Virus record (IMG/VR): IMGVR_UViG_2703719355_000005
From: a virus
Lineage: Duplodnaviria > Heunggongvirae > Uroviricota > Caudoviricetes
Direction: 5' to 3' (one strand)
Length of the DNA stretch: 10,434 nucleotides
Shown: piece after piece, positions 2,142-10,285 of the stretch
How the letters are laid out: each line of letters opens with the position of its first letter
How positions within the stretch are numbered: position 1 is the stretch's first letter
Position numbers and translations under genes: made by a program
Notes under the pieces: generated by a model
What the model was told of the DNA's origin: nothing
Databases searched by the model: none
The model's input: the letters and a program-made list of their open reading frames with translations, nothing else

Positions 2142-2331
2142 ACTGCAGGTGCTGCGTCAGGCGCGCCTTGATTTATTAACCGGTAAACGGGTGGTGTCTG
2201 TCCAGAAAGATGGTCGCAGAATTGAATATACGGCAGCTTCTCTGGATGAGCTTAACCGGGCGATCAATGATGCGGAGTCGGTACTGGGGACAACCCGGCG
2301 TCGCCGTCGTCCGCTGGGAGTGAGGTTATGA
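2125..2331 (+). CDS. W: Head-tail joining / head completion protein (lambda gpW-like)
   Basis: 68-aa ORF; LTGKRVVSVQKDGRRIEYTAASLDEL matches the lambda gpW core ([23 protein letters not shown]) and the length is the same. GGAGGA precedes the ATG. Overlaps the 3' end of A and the 5' end of B (ATGA). Confidence 0.9.
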   Translation: MVTVAELQVLRQARLDLLTGKRVVSVQKDGRRIEYTAASLDELNRAINDAESVLGTTRRRRRPLGVRL

Positions 2332-3920
2332 AACGAACGCCTGTCCTGATTGATGTGAACGGCGTTCCGCTTCGGGAGAGCCTCAGCTACAACGGTGGCG
2401 GTGCAGGATTTGGCGGGCAAATGGCAGAGTGGTTGCCACCCTCGCAGAGTGCCGATGCGGCCCTGCTGCCCGCGTTGCGTCTGGGGAATGCCCGTGCAGA
2501 TGATCTGGTGCGCAATAACGGAATAGCGGCCAATGCGGTGGCCCTGCATAAGGATCACATTGTCGGGCATATGTTTCTGATTAGCTACCGTCCGAACTGG
2601 CGCTGGCTGGGGATGCGGGAGACCGCGGCAAAAAGTTTTGTCGATGAGGTGGAGGCGGCCTGGTCAGAATACGCAGAAGGGATGTTTGGTGAGATCGACG
2701 TGGAAGGGAAACGCACGTTTACGGAATTTATCCGTGAAGGTGTGGGCGTTCATGCGTTTAACGGCGAAATCTTTGTGCAGCCGGTCTGGGATACGGAGAG
2801 TACGCAACTGTTTCGTACGCGTTTTAAAGCCGTGAGTCCGAAACGGGTGGACACGCCAGGACACGGTATCGGGAACCGTTTTCTGCGGGCCGGTGTGGAG
2901 GTTGATCGATATGGCCGTGCCGTTGCGTACCATATCTGTGAGGATGATTTTCCTCGCTCCGGGAGTGGACGATGGGAACGGATCCCGCGTGAACTACCCA
3001 CCGGGCGTCCGGCCATGCTGCATATTTTCGAGCCGGTGGAGGACGGGCAGACCCGTGGAGCCAATCAGTTTTACAGCGTTATGGAACGGCTGAAGATGCT
3101 GGATTCCCTGCAGGCAACACAGCTTCAGTCGGCCATAGTGAAGGCGATGTATGCAGCGACGATTGAAAGTGACCTTGATACCGAAAAGGCCTTTGAATAT
3201 ATCGCCGGTGCGCCGCAGGGGCAGAAGGATAATCCGCTTATTAATATTCTGGATAAGTTCTCCACCTGGTATGACACGAATAGCGTGACGCTGGGCGGTG
3301 TCAAAATTCCGCACCTTTTCCCCGGTGATGATCTGAAACTTCAGACCGCGCAGGATTCAGACAATGGATTTTCGGCGCTTGAACAGGCGCTGCTGCGGTA
3401 TATCGCCGCCGGTCTTGGCGTTTCCTACGAACAGTTGTCCCGGGATTACTCGAAGGTCAGTTATTCAAGTGCCCGCGCCTCCGCCAATGAGTCGTGGCGC
3501 TATTTTATGGGACGACGAAAATTTATTGCGTCCCGGCTGGCCACGCAGATGTTTTCCTGCTGGCTGGAAGAGGCACTTCTTCGGGGGATTATTCGTCCGC
3601 CACGGGCGCGTTTTGATTTTTATCAGGCGCGATCAGCCTGGTCACGGGCTGAGTGGATTGGAGCCGGAAGAATGGCCATTGACGGGCTCAAGGAAGTCCA
3701 GGAATCAGTGATGCGCATTGAGGCCGGACTGAGCACGTATGAGAAAGAGCTGGCGCTGATGGGCGAGGATTATCAGGACATTTTCCGCCAGCAGGTCAGG
3801 GAATCTGCAGAGCGGGAAAAAGCCGGACTCTCACGTCCGGTGTGGATAGCGCAGGCGTATCAGCAGCAGATAGCGGAGAGTCGCAGGCCGGAAGAGGAGA
3901 CAACACCACGTGAGACGTAA
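2328..3920 (+). CDS. B: Portal protein (lambda gpB-like)
   Basis: 530-aa ORF in the lambda B position with a similar length (I recall about 533 aa for lambda), located between W and C; the start overlaps the W stop (ATGA). Confidence 0.93.
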   Translation: MKRTPVLIDVNGVPLRESLSYNGGGAGFGGQMAEWLPPSQSADAALLPALRLGNARADDLVRNNGIAANAVALHKDHIVGHMFLISYRPNWRWLGMRETAAKSFVDEVEAAWSEYAEGMFGEIDVEGKRTFTEFIREGVGVHAFNGEIFVQPVWDTESTQLFRTRFKAVSPKRVDTPGHGIGNRFLRAGVEVDRYGRAVAYHICEDDFPRSGSGRWERIPRELPTGRPAMLHIFEPVEDGQTRGANQFYSVMERLKMLDSLQATQLQSAIVKAMYAATIESDLDTEKAFEYIAGAPQGQKDNPLINILDKFSTWYDTNSVTLGGVKIPHLFPGDDLKLQTAQDSDNGFSALEQALLRYIAAGLGVSYEQLSRDYSKVSYSSARASANESWRYFMGRRKFIASRLATQMFSCWLEEALLRGIIRPPRARFDFYQARSAWSRAEWIGAGRMAIDGLKEVQESVMRIEAGLSTYEKELALMGEDYQDIFRQQVRESAEREKAGLSRPVWIAQAYQQQIAESRRPEEETTPRET

Positions 3921-5415
3921 TCTTTCACACATTATTGCCGCAGCATTCAATGAACCGCTGCTTCTGGAGCCCGCCTATGCGCGGGTTTTCTTTTGCGCGC
4001 TGGGGCGCGAGATGGGGGCAGCAAGTCTTTCGGTACCACAACAACAGGTACAGCTTGATGCTTCCGGAATGCTGGCTGAAACGGACGAGTACATGGCCGG
4101 AGGTAAACGACCGGCCCGTGTTTACCGGGTGGTGAACGGTATTGCGGTACTGCCGGTGACCGGCACGCTGGTGCACCGGCTGGGGGGGATGCGGCCATTT
4201 TCCGGAATGACAGGCTATGACGGTATTGTCGCCTGTCTTCAGCAGGCAATGGCAGATAGCCAGGTGCGGGGCATACTGCTGGACATTGACAGTCCGGGCG
4301 GGCAGGCCGCCGGCGCGTTTGACTGCGCTGACATGATTTACCGCCTCCGGCAGCAGAAGCCGGTCTGGGCACTGTGCAATGACACGGCCTGTTCTGCGGC
4401 CATGCTGCTGGCGTCGGCCTGCTCCCGACGGCTGGTTACCCAGACATCCCGTATCGGCTCCATTGGCGTGATGATGAGCCATGTCAGCTATGCCGGTCAT
4501 CTGGCGCAGGCCGGGGTGGATATCACGCTGATTTATGCCGGGGCGCACAAGGTGGATGGCAATCAGTTTGAAGCGTTGCCGGCAGAGGTTCGCCAGGACA
4601 TGCAGCAGCGGATTGATGCGGCGCGCCGGATGTTTGCCGAAAAAGTGGCGATGTATACCGGGTTGTCTGTTGATGCAGTCACGGGAACAGAGGCCGCCGT
4701 TTTTGAAGGTCAGTCCGGCATTGAGGCCGGACTGGCGGATGAATTAATCAATGCGTCGGATGCCATCAGTGTGATGGCCACGGCGCTGAACAGTAATGTC
4801 AGAGGAGGCACTATGCCGCAATTAACTGCAACGGAAGCCGCCGCGCAGGAGAACCAGCGAGTGATGGGGATCCTGACATGCCAGGAAGCGAAAGGACGTG
4901 AACAGCTTGCCACGATGCTGGCAGGACAACAGGGCATGAGCGTTGAACAGGCCCGGGCGATTCTGGCCGCGGCGGCACCGCAGCAGCCGGTGGCATCCGC
5001 GCAGAGTGAAGCCGATCGCATTATGGCGTGTGAAGAAGCGAAAGGTCGTGAACAACTGGCGGCAACGCTGGCGGCGATGCCGGAGATGACGGTGGAAAAA
5101 GCACGCCCGATCCTGGCGGCTGCACCACTGGCGGATGCCGGGCCCTCACTTCGTGATCAGATCATGGCCCTGGATGAGGCAAAAGGGGCAGAAGCGCAGG
5201 CTGAAAAACTGGCGGCCTGCCCGGGAATGACCGTGGAGAACGCCCGGGCTGTGCTGGCTGCGGGATCAGGTAAGGCCGAACCGGTCTCTGCATCCACAAC
5301 CGCCCTGTTTGAACATTTCATGGCGAATCATTCACCGGCAGCGGTGCGGGGTGGCGTGTCACAGACGTCAGCAGACGGTGATGCGGACGTGAAAATGCTC
5401 ATGGCCATGCCATGA
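3910..5415 (+). CDS. C: Prohead protease / scaffold fusion (lambda gpC-like, S49/ClpP-family serine peptidase domain), GTG start
   Basis: 501-aa ORF. N-terminal two-thirds resembles lambda gpC (NLSHIIAAAFNEPLLLEPAYARVFFCAL..., GIAVLPV.GTLV, DSPGG.AAGAFDCAD, VWAL.ND..CSA, GSIGVMM, LADEL.N..DAI). GTG start at 3910 overlaps the B stop, with GAGGAG upstream. The C-terminal third is the Nu3-like scaffold region. Confidence 0.9.
   Translation: MRRNLSHIIAAAFNEPLLLEPAYARVFFCALGREMGAASLSVPQQQVQLDASGMLAETDEYMAGGKRPARVYRVVNGIAVLPVTGTLVHRLGGMRPFSGMTGYDGIVACLQQAMADSQVRGILLDIDSPGGQAAGAFDCADMIYRLRQQKPVWALCNDTACSAAMLLASACSRRLVTQTSRIGSIGVMMSHVSYAGHLAQAGVDITLIYAGAHKVDGNQFEALPAEVRQDMQQRIDAARRMFAEKVAMYTGLSVDAVTGTEAAVFEGQSGIEAGLADELINASDAISVMATALNSNVRGGTMPQLTATEAAAQENQRVMGILTCQEAKGREQLATMLAGQQGMSVEQARAILAAAAPQQPVASAQSEADRIMACEEAKGREQLAATLAAMPEMTVEKARPILAAAPLADAGPSLRDQIMALDEAKGAEAQAEKLAACPGMTVENARAVLAAGSGKAEPVSASTTALFEHFMANHSPAAVRGGVSQTSADGDADVKMLMAMP
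4813..5415 (+). CDS. nu3: Putative nested scaffolding protein (lambda Nu3-like), in-frame internal start within C
   Basis: Strong Shine-Dalgarno AGAGGAGG at 4801-4808 followed by ATG at 4813, in the same frame as C. The position aligns with the lambda Nu3 start (..SGGRMTKETQ versus ..RGGTMPQLTA). In lambda, Nu3 is translated from an internal in-frame start in C. Confidence 0.6.
   Translation: MPQLTATEAAAQENQRVMGILTCQEAKGREQLATMLAGQQGMSVEQARAILAAAAPQQPVASAQSEADRIMACEEAKGREQLAATLAAMPEMTVEKARPILAAAPLADAGPSLRDQIMALDEAKGAEAQAEKLAACPGMTVENARAVLAAGSGKAEPVSASTTALFEHFMANHSPAAVRGGVSQTSADGDADVKMLMAMP
4855..5270 (+). repeat. Three tandem copies of an approximately 47-codon scaffold module inside C/Nu3 (period about 141-159 nt)
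   Basis: Protein-level repeats: (1) RVMGILTCQEAKGREQLATMLAGQQGMSVEQARAILAAAAP, (2) RIMACEEAKGREQLAATLAAMPEMTVEKARPILAAAPL, (3) QIMALDEAKGAEAQAEKLAACPGMTVENARAVLAAG. Similarity is also visible in the DNA (gaagcgaaagg.cgtgaaca at about 4884 and 5034). From memory, lambda has a single copy (SRIMGILNCEEAHGREEQARVLAETPGMTVKTARRILAAAPQ). Confidence 0.8.
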
Positions 5416-5451
5416 AGTCAGTGCTGACCATCAACAGGAGGTTTTAACAAA

Positions 5452-5799
5452 ATGGTGACGAAAACCATCACTGAACAGCGTGCGGAAGTACGTATTTTTG
5501 CCGGTAATGATCCGGCTCATACCGCCACAGGCAGCAGCGGGATTTCTTCTGCAACACCGGCTCTGACGCCCCTGATGCTGGATGAAGCCACCGGGAAACT
5601 GGTGGTCTGGGACGGACAGAAAGCCGGTAGTGCGGTTGGCATACTGGTACTGCCGCTTGAAGGCACAGAGACGGTGCTGACCTATTACAAGTCGGGGACC
5701 TTTGCGACGGAGGCAATCCGCTGGCCTGACAGTGTGGATGAACACAAAAAGGCAAATGCCTTTGCCGGCACAGCCCTGAGTCACGCGGCTCTGCCGTAA
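5452..5799 (+). CDS. D: Head decoration protein (lambda gpD-like)
   Basis: 115-aa ORF; DPAHTAT, TPLMLD, KLVVWDG, AVGIL, YKSGTF and AFAGTA motifs match lambda gpD (110 aa). AGGAGG lies 10 nt upstream of the ATG. Confidence 0.9.
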   Translation: MVTKTITEQRAEVRIFAGNDPAHTATGSSGISSATPALTPLMLDEATGKLVVWDGQKAGSAVGILVLPLEGTETVLTYYKSGTFATEAIRWPDSVDEHKKANAFAGTALSHAALP

Positions 5800-5827: not shown

Positions 5828-5949
5828 ACTGATTTCTGAATGAAAGGAACTGATTTATGGGATTGTTTACGACCCGCTAGTTACTCGGTTATACCGAACA
5901 AAAAGTTAAATTTCGTGCGCTGTTTCTGGAACTGTTTTTCCGCCGTACG

Positions 5950-6885
5950 GTGAATTTCCACACCGAAGAGGTGATGCTGGACAAAATTACCGGAAAAACG
6001 CCGGTGGCGGCCTATGTCTCCCCGGTCGTTGAAGGAAAAGTGCTGCGTCATCGTGGGGGTGAAACCCGCGTGTTACGTCCGGGCTACGTCAAGCCGAAAC
6101 ACGAATTTAATTACCAGCAGGCGGTTGAACGCCTTCCTGGTGAAGATCCGGCTCAACTGAACGATCCGGCTTACCGCCGTCTGCGTATCATTACCGATAA
6201 CCTCAAACAGGAAGAGCACGCGATTGTCCAGGTGGAAGAAATACAGGCGGTAAATGCTGTGTTGTATGGCAAATATACGATGGAAGGAGACCAGTTCGAG
6301 AAAATTGAGGTCGATTTTGGCAGGTCGACGAAGAATAACATCACTCAGGGTAGTGGTAAGGAGTGGTCAAAACAGGATCGTGACACGTTCGATCCTACAC
6401 ATGATCTTGACCTCTACTGCGACCAGGCCAGCGGTCTTGTGAATATTGCCATTATGGACGGTACCGTCTGGCGTCTTCTGAATGGTTTTAAGCTGTTCCG
6501 CGAAAAACTGGATACCCGTCGCGGTTCAAATTCTCAACTCGAAACGGCAGTGAAAGATCTGGGCGCAGTGGTGTCCTTCAAGGGGTATTACGGCGATCTG
6601 GCCATTGTGGTGGCGAAAACGTCTTATATAGCAGAAGACGGTATCGAAAAACGTTATCTGCCGGAGGGCATGCTGGTTCTGGGGAATACTGCTGCAGATG
6701 GGATCCGTTGTTACGGTGCCATTCAGGATGCGCAGGCGTTGTCCGAAGGTGTGGTGGCCTCTTCCCGTTATCCGAAACACTGGCTGACGGTGGGGGATCC
6801 CGCCCGTGAATTTACCATGACGCAGTCCGCGCCGCTGATGGTGTTGCCGGACCCGGATGAGTTTGTGGTGGTACAGGTGAAATAA
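5950..6885 (+). CDS. E: Major capsid protein (lambda gpE-like). The conserved N-terminal codons continue upstream to ATG 5857 but are interrupted by an in-frame TAG at 5878-5880, so this may be an amber allele or pseudogene
   Basis: The open frame from GTG 5950 encodes ...YVSPVVEGKVLRHRGGET...PGYVKPKHE...DPAYRR.RII...GKYTM.G...RGSNS.LETAVKDLG...TGDPAREFTM.QSAPLM, matching lambda gpE. The same frame upstream reads MGLFTTR*LLGYTEQKVKFRALFLELFFRR, which aligns with lambda MSMYTTAQLLAANEQKFKFDPLFLRLFFRE. A Shine-Dalgarno AAGGA lies 8 nt before ATG 5857. Confidence 0.85.
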   Translation: MNFHTEEVMLDKITGKTPVAAYVSPVVEGKVLRHRGGETRVLRPGYVKPKHEFNYQQAVERLPGEDPAQLNDPAYRRLRIITDNLKQEEHAIVQVEEIQAVNAVLYGKYTMEGDQFEKIEVDFGRSTKNNITQGSGKEWSKQDRDTFDPTHDLDLYCDQASGLVNIAIMDGTVWRLLNGFKLFREKLDTRRGSNSQLETAVKDLGAVVSFKGYYGDLAIVVAKTSYIAEDGIEKRYLPEGMLVLGNTAADGIRCYGAIQDAQALSEGVVASSRYPKHWLTVGDPAREFTMTQSAPLMVLPDPDEFVVVQVK

Positions 6886-7672: not shown

Positions 7673-8248
7673 ATGGCGATAAAAGGGCTTGAGCAGGCGA
7701 TTGATAATCTGAGCCGGGTTCGTAAAAACGCCATTCCGGCGGCTTCTGCAATGACCATTAACCGCGTGGCCACAACGGCGATTAATCAGTCTTCATCACA
7801 GGTTGCCCGGGAAACCAGGGTGAGACGGAAACTGGTTAAGGAACGGTCCAGACTGAAACGGGCCACGGTCAGAAATCCGAATGCCAGAATTATCGTTAAC
7901 CGCGGTGATCTCCCGGTGATTAAGCTGGGGATCAGGATGCCGGGGCGTCGTCCGGACAGCATACTCAAAGCCGGTCAGCATCGTTATCAGCGGGCATTTA
8001 TCCAGCGATTAAATAATGGGCGCTGGCATGTTATGCAACGTCTTCCCCAGGCCAGATATAAGGAGGGCAATGACGACAAGGGAAGGAAAAAGCGTAATCG
8101 CCTTCCCATTCAGGTGGTGAAAATCCCGATGGCGGCCCCACTGAAACAGGCATTTGATGAGAATGTTGACCGTATCCGGCGTGAACGCCTGCCTAAAGAA
8201 CTGGCATACGCGCTGAAACAACAACTGAGGATTGCGATAAAACGATGA
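7673..8248 (+). CDS. Z: Minor tail protein Z (lambda gpZ-like tail completion protein)
   Basis: 191 aa; MAIKGLEQAIDNLSRV...INRVA...SQVARET.VRRKLVKER.RLKRATV.NP.ARI.VNRGDLPVIKLG...RERLPKEL.YAL..QLR matches lambda gpZ (192 aa). Confidence 0.9.
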   Translation: MAIKGLEQAIDNLSRVRKNAIPAASAMTINRVATTAINQSSSQVARETRVRRKLVKERSRLKRATVRNPNARIIVNRGDLPVIKLGIRMPGRRPDSILKAGQHRYQRAFIQRLNNGRWHVMQRLPQARYKEGNDDKGRKKRNRLPIQVVKIPMAAPLKQAFDENVDRIRRERLPKELAYALKQQLRIAIKR

Positions 8249-9413: not shown

Positions 9414-9845
9414 ATGTTTCTGAAAACCGAACAATTTGAATATAACGGTGTGTCCGTCACGCTTTCCGAGCTGTCTGCGCTGCAGCGTATCGAGCATCTT
9501 GCCCTGCTGAAACGACGGGCAGAACAGGCTGAAGCCAGCGGTAACCTGCAGGTGAGCGTGGAAGACCTTGTCAGAACCGGCGCGTTTCTGGTGGCGATGT
9601 CCCTGTGGCATAACCATCCACAGAAAACGGAGTCACCGTCAATGAATGAGGCCGTGATGAAGATAGAGCAGGAAGTGCTCACCACCTGGCCTGCCGATGC
9701 CATTGCCCGGGCGGAAGACGTGGTGTTGTGCCTGTCCGGGATGATCGAAGCTGTTCGTCCGGATACTGATATTACTGAAGTGGCGAAAAATAACACGCTG
9801 ACTGATGATGATTTTTCTGCGGGAAAGTCTTCGACGGCGAGCTGA
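9414..9845 (+). CDS. G: Tail assembly chaperone G (lambda gpG-like)
   Basis: 143 aa; MFLKTEQFEYNGVSVTLSELSALQRIEHLALLKRRAEQAE...TGAFLVAMSLWHNHPQKT..PSMNEAV..IEQEVLTTWP is near-identical in pattern to lambda gpG. GGAGGT precedes the ATG. Confidence 0.92.
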   Translation: MFLKTEQFEYNGVSVTLSELSALQRIEHLALLKRRAEQAEASGNLQVSVEDLVRTGAFLVAMSLWHNHPQKTESPSMNEAVMKIEQEVLTTWPADAIARAEDVVLCLSGMIEAVRPDTDITEVAKNNTLTDDDFSAGKSSTAS

Positions 9846-10285
9846 ACTTTGCCCTCAGACTGGCGCGTGAGATGGGGAGACCCGACTGGCGCGCCATGCT
9901 TGCCGGGATGACATCCACCGAATATGCCGACTGGCACCGTTTTTACCGCACGCATTATTTTCAGGATACCCAGCTGGATATGCATTTTTCCGGGCTGACG
10001 TACGCTGTACTCAGCCTGTTTTTTTGCGATCCGGATATGCATCCCTCTGATTTCAGTCTGCTTGTCCCCCGGCATGAGGAAGAGCAGGTGGAGAGGCTGG
10101 ATGAGGACAAAATGCTGATGCAGAAAGCGGCAGGACTTGCCGGAGGCGTCCGGTTCGGTGGGGACGGAGGGCGCGATATTTTATCGTCTGCGGATGTGGC
10201 GGATGTCATGGTGGATGATGCCGCATTAATGATGGCTTCAGCGGGGATTTCCGGAGGTGTGAGATATGTCCCAGCCGGTTGGTGA
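9414..10285 (+). CDS. Tail assembly chaperone G-T fusion, made by -1 frameshift at 9821-9827 (G frame 9414-9827, then T frame 9827-10285)
   Basis: The T frame (position mod 3 = 2) is exactly -1 relative to G (mod 3 = 0) and is open through the slip site to TGA at 10283-10285. Arrangement is conserved in lambda and many other tailed phages. Confidence 0.8.
9821..9827 (+). other. Programmed -1 ribosomal frameshift slippery heptamer G_GGA_AAG (G/G-T)
   Basis: gggaaag at 9821-9827, with GGA and AAG as zero-frame codons 22 nt before the G stop. The -1 frame continues as VFDGELNFALRLAREMGRPDWRAMLAGMTSTEYADWHRF..., which matches the lambda gpGT junction and T sequence. Confidence 0.85.
9827..10285 (+). 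CDS. T: T-frame segment of the tail assembly protein (lambda gpT-like), expected to be expressed only as the G-T fusion
   Basis: Open -1 frame encoding VFDGELNFALRLAREMGRPDWRAMLAGMTSTEYADWHRFYRTHYFQDTQLDMHFSGLTYAVLSLFFCDPDMHPSDF... The first ATG (9872) has no convincing independent RBS. Confidence 0.75.
   Translation, partial: VFDGELNFALRLAREMGRPDWRAMLAGMTSTEYADWHRFYRTHYFQDTQLDMHFSGLTYAVLSLFFCDPDMHPSDFSLLVPRHEEEQVERLDEDKMLMQKAAGLAGGVRFGGDGGRDILSSADVADVMVDDAALMMASAGISGGVRYVPAGW

Follow-up and report, generated by a model that had tools for sequence, protein, structure and literature searches.

The head maturation protease gene of a phage 21-like lambdoid prophage of Escherichia coli raises the question of whether one open reading frame (ORF) gives one protein or two. 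The gene lies in IMG/VR record IMGVR_UViG_2703719355_000005, and the whole stretch of 10,434 nucleotides (nt) that was analysed, hereafter the window, is the head-gene block of this prophage. The ORF (3910..5415, + strand) encodes a head maturation protease-scaffold protein of 501 amino acids (aa), recognized from the ORF list, its translation and homology as a homologue of lambda C and phage 21 gene 5. It was concluded that two initiation sites in this one frame very probably yield both a free scaffold and its fusion to the protease. The nested start itself is already known: the gene belongs to the lambda C/Nu3 family and is, in essence, gene 5/6 of phage 21.

The internal start and the two parts of the gene

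A Shine-Dalgarno (SD) sequence, AGAGGAGG, was located at 4801..4808 on the + strand. It was followed by the 4-nt spacer CACT (4809-4812) and by an ATG at 4813..4815, codon 302 of the long ORF, in the sequence context gtcAGAGGAGGcactATGccg; the initial annotation had described this arrangement exactly. In the full-length frame the SD sequence is read as the codons AGA GGA GG(C), that is, Arg-Gly-Gly. The two starts are separated by 903 nt (4813-3910), or 301 codons, and the ATG is thus in frame with the 501-codon ORF. The nested scaffold gene (4813..5415, +), a homologue of Nu3 and phage 21 gp6, encodes 200 aa and is 3'-co-terminal with the protease gene.

The site had been called strong, and the calculations agreed. 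The duplex of the internal SD with the anti-SD was estimated at -12.0 kcal/mol, the second best of 611 ATG, GTG and TTG candidates on the + strand. Among the 27 in-frame ATGs of the ORF, the one at 4813 had the strongest SD pairing, and none of the other 26 equalled it. The start context of the full-length product is weaker: a GTG is preceded at a distance of 10 nt by the SD-like GAGGAG (3894..3899, +; duplex -9.1 kcal/mol), and the ORF overlaps the end of the portal gene, with its stop codon, by 11 nt. A putative ribosome-binding site is marked in the phage 21 record at the position matching 3894..3899. A consensus scan of both strands revealed no sigma-70-like promoter between 4500 and 5500; the short product would therefore have to arise by internal translation initiation.

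The internal ATG follows the boundary between two parts of the long protein. The N-terminal part contains a Peptidase S49 (SppA/ClpP-like) domain at residues 146-293 (4345..4788, +; Pfam PF01343, E = 2.9e-35), for which the nearest solved structures were those of SppA (match at 7e-16). Ser162 and Lys214 were invariant in six diverse aligned homologues (alignment A1), and Ser162 aligned with lambda Ser166. BLASTP aligned the long protein with lambda gpC at 54% identity (residues 3-372, E = 1e-142). No Pfam family was matched 3' of codon 302. The scaffold part matched PHROG 8399, 'head scaffolding protein', in three separate stretches (E = 2.3e-34), and aligned by BLASTP with lambda C residues 355-414.

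A ~45-aa unit, I-M-x-x-x-E-A-K-G-x-E...M-T-V-E-x-A-R-x-I-L-A-A, was recognized three times, in diverged form, in the scaffold part and once in lambda; an alignment of the three units with the lambda unit (A2) had 15 invariant columns. Repeat 1 (aa 311-365; 4840..5004, +) holds the Tri1 box of phage 21 and is the homologue of the single copy of lambda Nu3. According to alignment A2 and the phage 21 annotation, repeat 2 (aa 366-412; 5005..5145, +) holds the Tri box and repeat 3 (aa 413-462; 5146..5295, +) the Tri3 box, the latter also being aligned with lambda C residues 364-410 in a further BLASTP segment. The three tandem ~45-aa units of the phage 21 gp6 subtype were thus all found in the window. 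DNA-level repeat finders saw only fragments of the Tri boxes, and the repeats were clear at the protein level only. Lambda gpNu3 is called intrinsically disordered in the title of Medina et al. 2011.

The number of Tri boxes varied among alleles. Forms of 451, 482, 501 and 551 aa (P0026, P0091, P0002 and P0107) carried about two units, a partial deletion, three units and four units, respectively, and the internal start was retained in all of them. These whole and partial differences are consistent with recombination between the repeats.

The position of the nested gene agreed with existing records. The gene was 96.9% identical at the nucleotide level to that of phage 21 over its whole length, and in M81255.1 ('Bacteriophage 21 head gene operon') gene 5 covers the whole ORF and gene 6, 'head-tail preconnector gp6', starts exactly at the ATG matching 4813; three repeat regions (Tri1, Tri and Tri3 box) are also given there. 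In the complete phage 21 record OL657228.1 the long gene (CPT_21_05) is labelled 'capsid protease/scaffolding protein' and the gene nested in it (CPT_21_06) 'scaffolding protein'. In phi80 (FN582354.1), a 137-aa gp6 is annotated at the aligned Met with an 'internal in-frame translational start within gene 5', and a nested coding sequence with its own ribosome-binding site is annotated in Xylella phage Sano. The exact 200-aa product of the window was a called protein on 2 contigs of the protein collection, and a second 200-aa member of the same protein cluster bears the name phage 21 gp6. The nested in-frame start put forward in the initial annotation was therefore supported by the phage 21 annotation and by comparison, and two polypeptides would be expected from the sequence.

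The junction was present in 1867 of 5426 complete E. coli genomes. It had been anticipated that automated annotation would miss the scaffold, and this was so in all 24 listed full-length RefSeq E. coli matches, which the NCBI Prokaryotic Genome Annotation Pipeline (PGAP) labelled only 'S49 family peptidase'. The biological import of the nested start is small, the overlapping-gene arrangement being a textbook one and the exact start being annotated in phage 21. The practical value lies in annotation, as the scaffold protein is absent from most proteome files.

Two further signals were noted on the sequence. The strongest SD pairing of the window (-12.7 kcal/mol) was that of TAAGGAGGGCAATG (8059-8072), which precedes an out-of-frame ATG within the Z-like gene (7673-8248), and this ATG opens an ORF of only 16 codons (MTTREGKSVIAFPFRW); this combination is probably due to chance. 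Directly 3' of the nested ATG, the minus strand carries TTGCAGTTAATTGC (4818-4831), a perfect cII-type TTGC-N6-TTGC, and OL657228 labels this site as a CII binding site. It was rejected as a regulatory feature: one match was found against 0.56 expected, at least one occurred in 84 of 200 shuffles, and no convincing -10 was seen by eye. The TTGC-N6-TTGC beside the nested ATG is probably also a chance occurrence.

Conservation of the junction among relatives

Conservation was examined in 80 close relatives from IMG/VR and in 80 loci from bacterial genomes taken one per species, with lambda, phi80, Gifsy-1, an Aeromonas phage and Sano added; the end of the protease domain was located by tblastn in each of them. 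In 63 distinct close ORFs of 1506 nt the 27-mer around the start was identical, and positions -10 to +25 of the ATG were invariant, whereas 183 of the 1506 columns were variable overall. An allele of Escherichia albertii had four upstream codons altered and kept ACA GGA GGC ACT ATG. The residues G-G-T-M-P were retained in 119 of 120 protein clusters (90% identity). Absence of the internal start from close relatives, which would have spoken against it, was thus seen in P0120 only.

Across larger distances little else remained. In a 78-nt alignment (A3) of 23 gamma-proteobacterial relatives with 45-96% protease identity, invariant columns were confined to the three letters of the ATG and a single G within the SD. 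Besides the ATG, the sole conserved block was GGAG(G), the mean column identity of the linker being 55%. This set included Trabulsiella, Salmonella Gifsy-1, lambda, phi80, Enterobacter, Kluyvera, Klebsiella, Serratia and Erwinia, as well as Aeromonadaceae, Marinomonas, Marinobacter, Hahella and others. Both elements of the start were therefore conserved in related phages. Among junctions in which Gly codons spell the motif, 23 of 24 distinct sequences used the rare GGA as the first of these codons, compared with 13.7% of the Gly codons of the same genes; the 24 junctions are not phylogenetically independent, and the excess is consequently given no formal probability, while the flanking codons were wholly turned over.

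In distant relatives a purine-rich SD-like motif was also observed 5' of the junction ATG, encoding other residues in other registers. The spellings included NRS (AAC AGG AGT, Sano), EERS (GAG GAG AGG AGT), QQE (CAG CAG GAG), KGA (AAA GGA GCA), LE (TTG GAG), RKG (AGA AAG GGT, in many Rhodobacterales prophages) and GV. Since the purine motif was kept while the residues changed, selection appears to act on the mRNA rather than on the peptide.

Some relatives possess separate protease and scaffold genes. In locus L145 and in the Chromobacterium prophages L154, L158 and L165, a stop codon follows right after the protease domain, and 14-16 nt past it CTGGAGGTATTTATG or a similar sequence starts a separate gene. 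The product of this gene was acidic, repeat-rich and scaffold-like, and the gene had its own SD. The separate-gene products of L145 and L154 were scanned and matched PHROGs 6382 and 17040, both of which are also matched, in the same profile regions, by the nested protein of the window. A BLASTP comparison of the nested scaffold with the downstream protein of L154 gave no match (E = 82), and the link between them consists of the shared PHROG profile matches only. These relatives resemble the window in their homologous S49 protease and in an SD and ATG opening a scaffold-like gene at the equivalent place; unlike in the window, the protease stop precludes a fusion by simple read-through. It follows that the scaffold module can form a gene of its own, in the corresponding position and opened by a start of the same type.

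As a tentative proposal, less likely to be right than wrong, the scaffold gene may once have stood apart and have kept its start as the present internal one, the fused-nested and two-gene states interconverting as one junction stop is gained or lost, as in the Chromobacterium-type relatives. The number of Tri boxes, 2 to 4 in E. coli prophage alleles, might then tune scaffold valency or assembly.

Sequences identical to lambda, including the lambda junction 27-mer, were met on contigs L093, L095-L100, L102, L103 and others, assigned to taxa such as Neobacillus, Kitasatospora, Shewanella, Leeuwenhoekiella and an Akkermansia metagenome-assembled genome; several of the contig names show a coverage near 1. 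Such contigs in unrelated taxa most likely represent contamination of the assemblies with lambda DNA.

Origin of the free scaffold

We proposed that initiation at GTG 3910 would give the 501-aa fusion of S49 serine protease and scaffold, and that independent ribosome binding at AGAGGAGG-N4-ATG (4801-4815) on the same late polycistronic mRNA would give the 200-aa scaffold alone. The three Tri-box repeats and the tail would be common to both products. Owing to this shared C-terminal part, the protease would be expected to co-assemble with the free scaffold in the procapsid and then to break down both that scaffold and itself, which is the course described for lambda gpC/gpNu3. In lambda, Nu3 is reportedly the scaffold, encoded in overlap with C, and gpC the protease. 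We infer initiation at 4813, a greater abundance of the short product than of the long one, co-assembly and degradation. The literature search returned no paper with data on the two polypeptides of phage 21-like elements, and nothing usable on phage 21 head genes or lambda ribosome profiling.

Several observations weigh against this proposal. The bare motif AGGAGG-N3-9-ATG occurred twice in the window against 0.54 expected, and two or more occurrences were seen in 22 of 200 shuffles. A crude estimate combining SD pairing and unfolding gave net values of -0.3 kcal/mol for 4813 and -0.8 kcal/mol for 3910, a ranking that does not separate the two starts and does not by itself predict 4813 as the stronger. 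In the minimum-energy fold a 4-bp hairpin can sequester part of the internal SD and the AUG, the local RNA fold at the start being otherwise unremarkable (z = -0.17), and ribosomes elongating from 3910 would transiently occlude both. The ribosome-binding site just 5' of gene 6 in M81255.1 is labelled 'putative'. In the singleton P0120 (450 aa, one ENA contig), a 15-residue deletion (ALNSNVRGGTMPQLT) removes the SD and the ATG. Finally, among the closest relatives the Gly-Gly that overlaps the SD could owe its conservation to a role as a flexible linker. The weight of the internal site comes from its frame, its position at the domain boundary and its conservation, not from the motif count.

The deletion in P0120 lies between short direct repeats, and P0120 was the sole allele found without the internal SD and ATG. 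This allele could represent either a defective copy or an artefact of assembly.

The least improbable of the alternatives, although it too was considered very unlikely, is that only the 501-aa protein is translated and the free scaffold is released by cleavage, the SD-like string being a by-product of an Arg-Gly-Gly linker and the ATG an ordinary Met. The window-wide count of the bare motif, which is within chance, fits this explanation, as does the constant G-G-x-M reading of the motif among the closest relatives, where conservation of the peptide and of the RNA are inseparable. Some fused protease-scaffold proteins of other phages, such as P2 gpO, undergo simple cleavage. A linker by-product does not account for the preference for GGA at the junction over its background, nor for a purine motif and ATG that persist with differing residues (RS, QE, KG, RKG, GV) and an unalignable linker. 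It also leaves aside those relatives whose protease ends with a junction stop and whose scaffold-like gene begins there as a gene apart, and lambda genetics, in which Nu3 is said to be a separate cistron overlapping C.

It was thought still less probable that the SD-like sequence is mainly an elongation pause site, acting through anti-SD pairing and letting the protease domain fold before the scaffold emerges. The motif does lie exactly at the domain boundary, with the S49 domain ending at residue 293, and SD-like pausing has been proposed in the literature and later disputed. A pause needs no ATG at a fixed distance of 4-6 nt, yet the ATG was invariant in the 23 diverged relatives, and the relatives in which a separate gene starts at the junction would go unexplained.

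Least probable of all was a nested product starting elsewhere, such as at the homologue of lambda nt 5132 (C codon 239) within the protease domain: records J02459 and NC_001416 do give nu3 as 201 aa from 5132 (5132-5737), a length near 200 aa by coincidence, but the aligned codon of the window is ATT (Ile), phi80 has Ile, the Aeromonas phage Val and Sano Leu, there is no SD upstream of lambda 5132, and no other in-frame ATG of the window ORF has comparable SD pairing.

Internal initiation at 4813 is thus preferred, and the same evidence bears on lambda itself. The initial annotation placed the window ATG where lambda starts Nu3. This holds for the conserved junction Met309 (nt 5342), the lambda homologue of the window ATG, where CAGGAGGGCGAATG presents CAGGAGG, a 4-nt spacer and ATG (nt 5332-5344) in the same geometry as in the window; it does not hold for the nu3 start of GenBank and RefSeq, which lies 70 codons 5' of Met309. 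The nu3 start given in the lambda reference records thus lacks both conservation and an upstream SD. The 131-aa form from Met309 appears in databases solely as a 'hypothetical protein', and 131 aa is also the profile length of PHROG 8399. Taken together, the comparative sequence data support the 131-aa form of lambda Nu3 over the database start. In UniProt, the Nu3 isoform reportedly lacks residues 1-308.

Neighbouring genes and comparison with known systems

By the ORF list, the window contains the head and proximal tail (left-arm) gene block of a lambdoid phage. The large terminase ORF (156-2141), a W-like ORF (2125-2331) and the portal ORF (2328-3920) precede the protease-scaffold gene, and the decoration gene (5452-5799) and the major capsid gene (5857-6885) follow it, with tail genes 3' of the latter. 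The location of the long ORF between the portal and the decoration and major capsid genes is colinear with lambda and phage 21.

Codon 8 of the major capsid gene (5878-5880) is the amber codon TAG, where phage 21 has CAG. CAG was found in 79 of the 80 sequences checked (loci and window), the window being the only one with TAG. None of 1870 matching E. coli records was identical to the 81 nt around the amber codon, each differing by at least one base. The element of the window is thus a defective prophage or an amber mutant, or the codon is a sequencing error.

A second two-product region was recognized toward the end of the G-like ORF (9414-9845). The conserved site of the programmed -1 frameshift of lambda G/GT is present there as the heptamer GGGAAAG at 9821-9827, in the register G GGA AAG, and from it the -1 frame runs into the T-like ORF (frame of 9872-10285).

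Among known systems, the herpesviruses offer one comparison. Herpes simplex virus 1 (HSV-1) UL26/UL26.5 is a similar protease-scaffold pair, in which the protease enters the procapsid by means of the C-terminus common to both products. The capsid protease/scaffold of OsHV-1 likewise comprises a fusion and a more abundant, N-terminally truncated scaffold, in the same frame and 3'-co-terminal (PMC11565193). The short form of herpesviruses is made from a separate transcript with an internal promoter, whereas the window has an internal ribosome-binding site, and the consensus scan of 4500-5500 gave no sigma-70-like promoter of the kind that the UL26.5 type would call for. The herpesvirus protease fold (assemblin) is also unrelated to S49.

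Four characters of the lambda C/Nu3 type were found in the window: an S49 domain with the conserved Ser and Lys, the operon position, an internal SD and start at the junction, and homology of the C-terminal part to Nu3. A fifth, two polypeptides of which the short one acts as scaffold and is degraded on maturation, would be predicted. Lambda shares with it the S49 N-terminal part, the SD, 4 nt and ATG at the aligned junction, the gene order and the repeat unit EA-x-G-x-E...M-T-V-x-x-A-R-x-I-L-A-A. Lambda differs in having one repeat unit, a long Thr/Ser/Ala-rich spacer and a nested product of 131 aa (Met309) rather than 200 aa, and lambda C starts with ATG whereas the window gene starts with GTG. 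Gene 5/6 of phi80 has TGGAGGAACTATG at the aligned Met, giving a 137-aa scaffold as the equivalent product, and, unlike the window, a single repeat unit with a lambda-like spacer. Phage 21 genes 5/6 are the closest match, with the same GTG start, internal ribosome-binding site and ATG, 200-aa nested length and three Tri boxes, and with the same neighbours, the portal gene 5' and the shp/decoration and major capsid genes 3'; the two differ by ~3% point differences and by the amber in the major capsid gene, which belongs to the window only.

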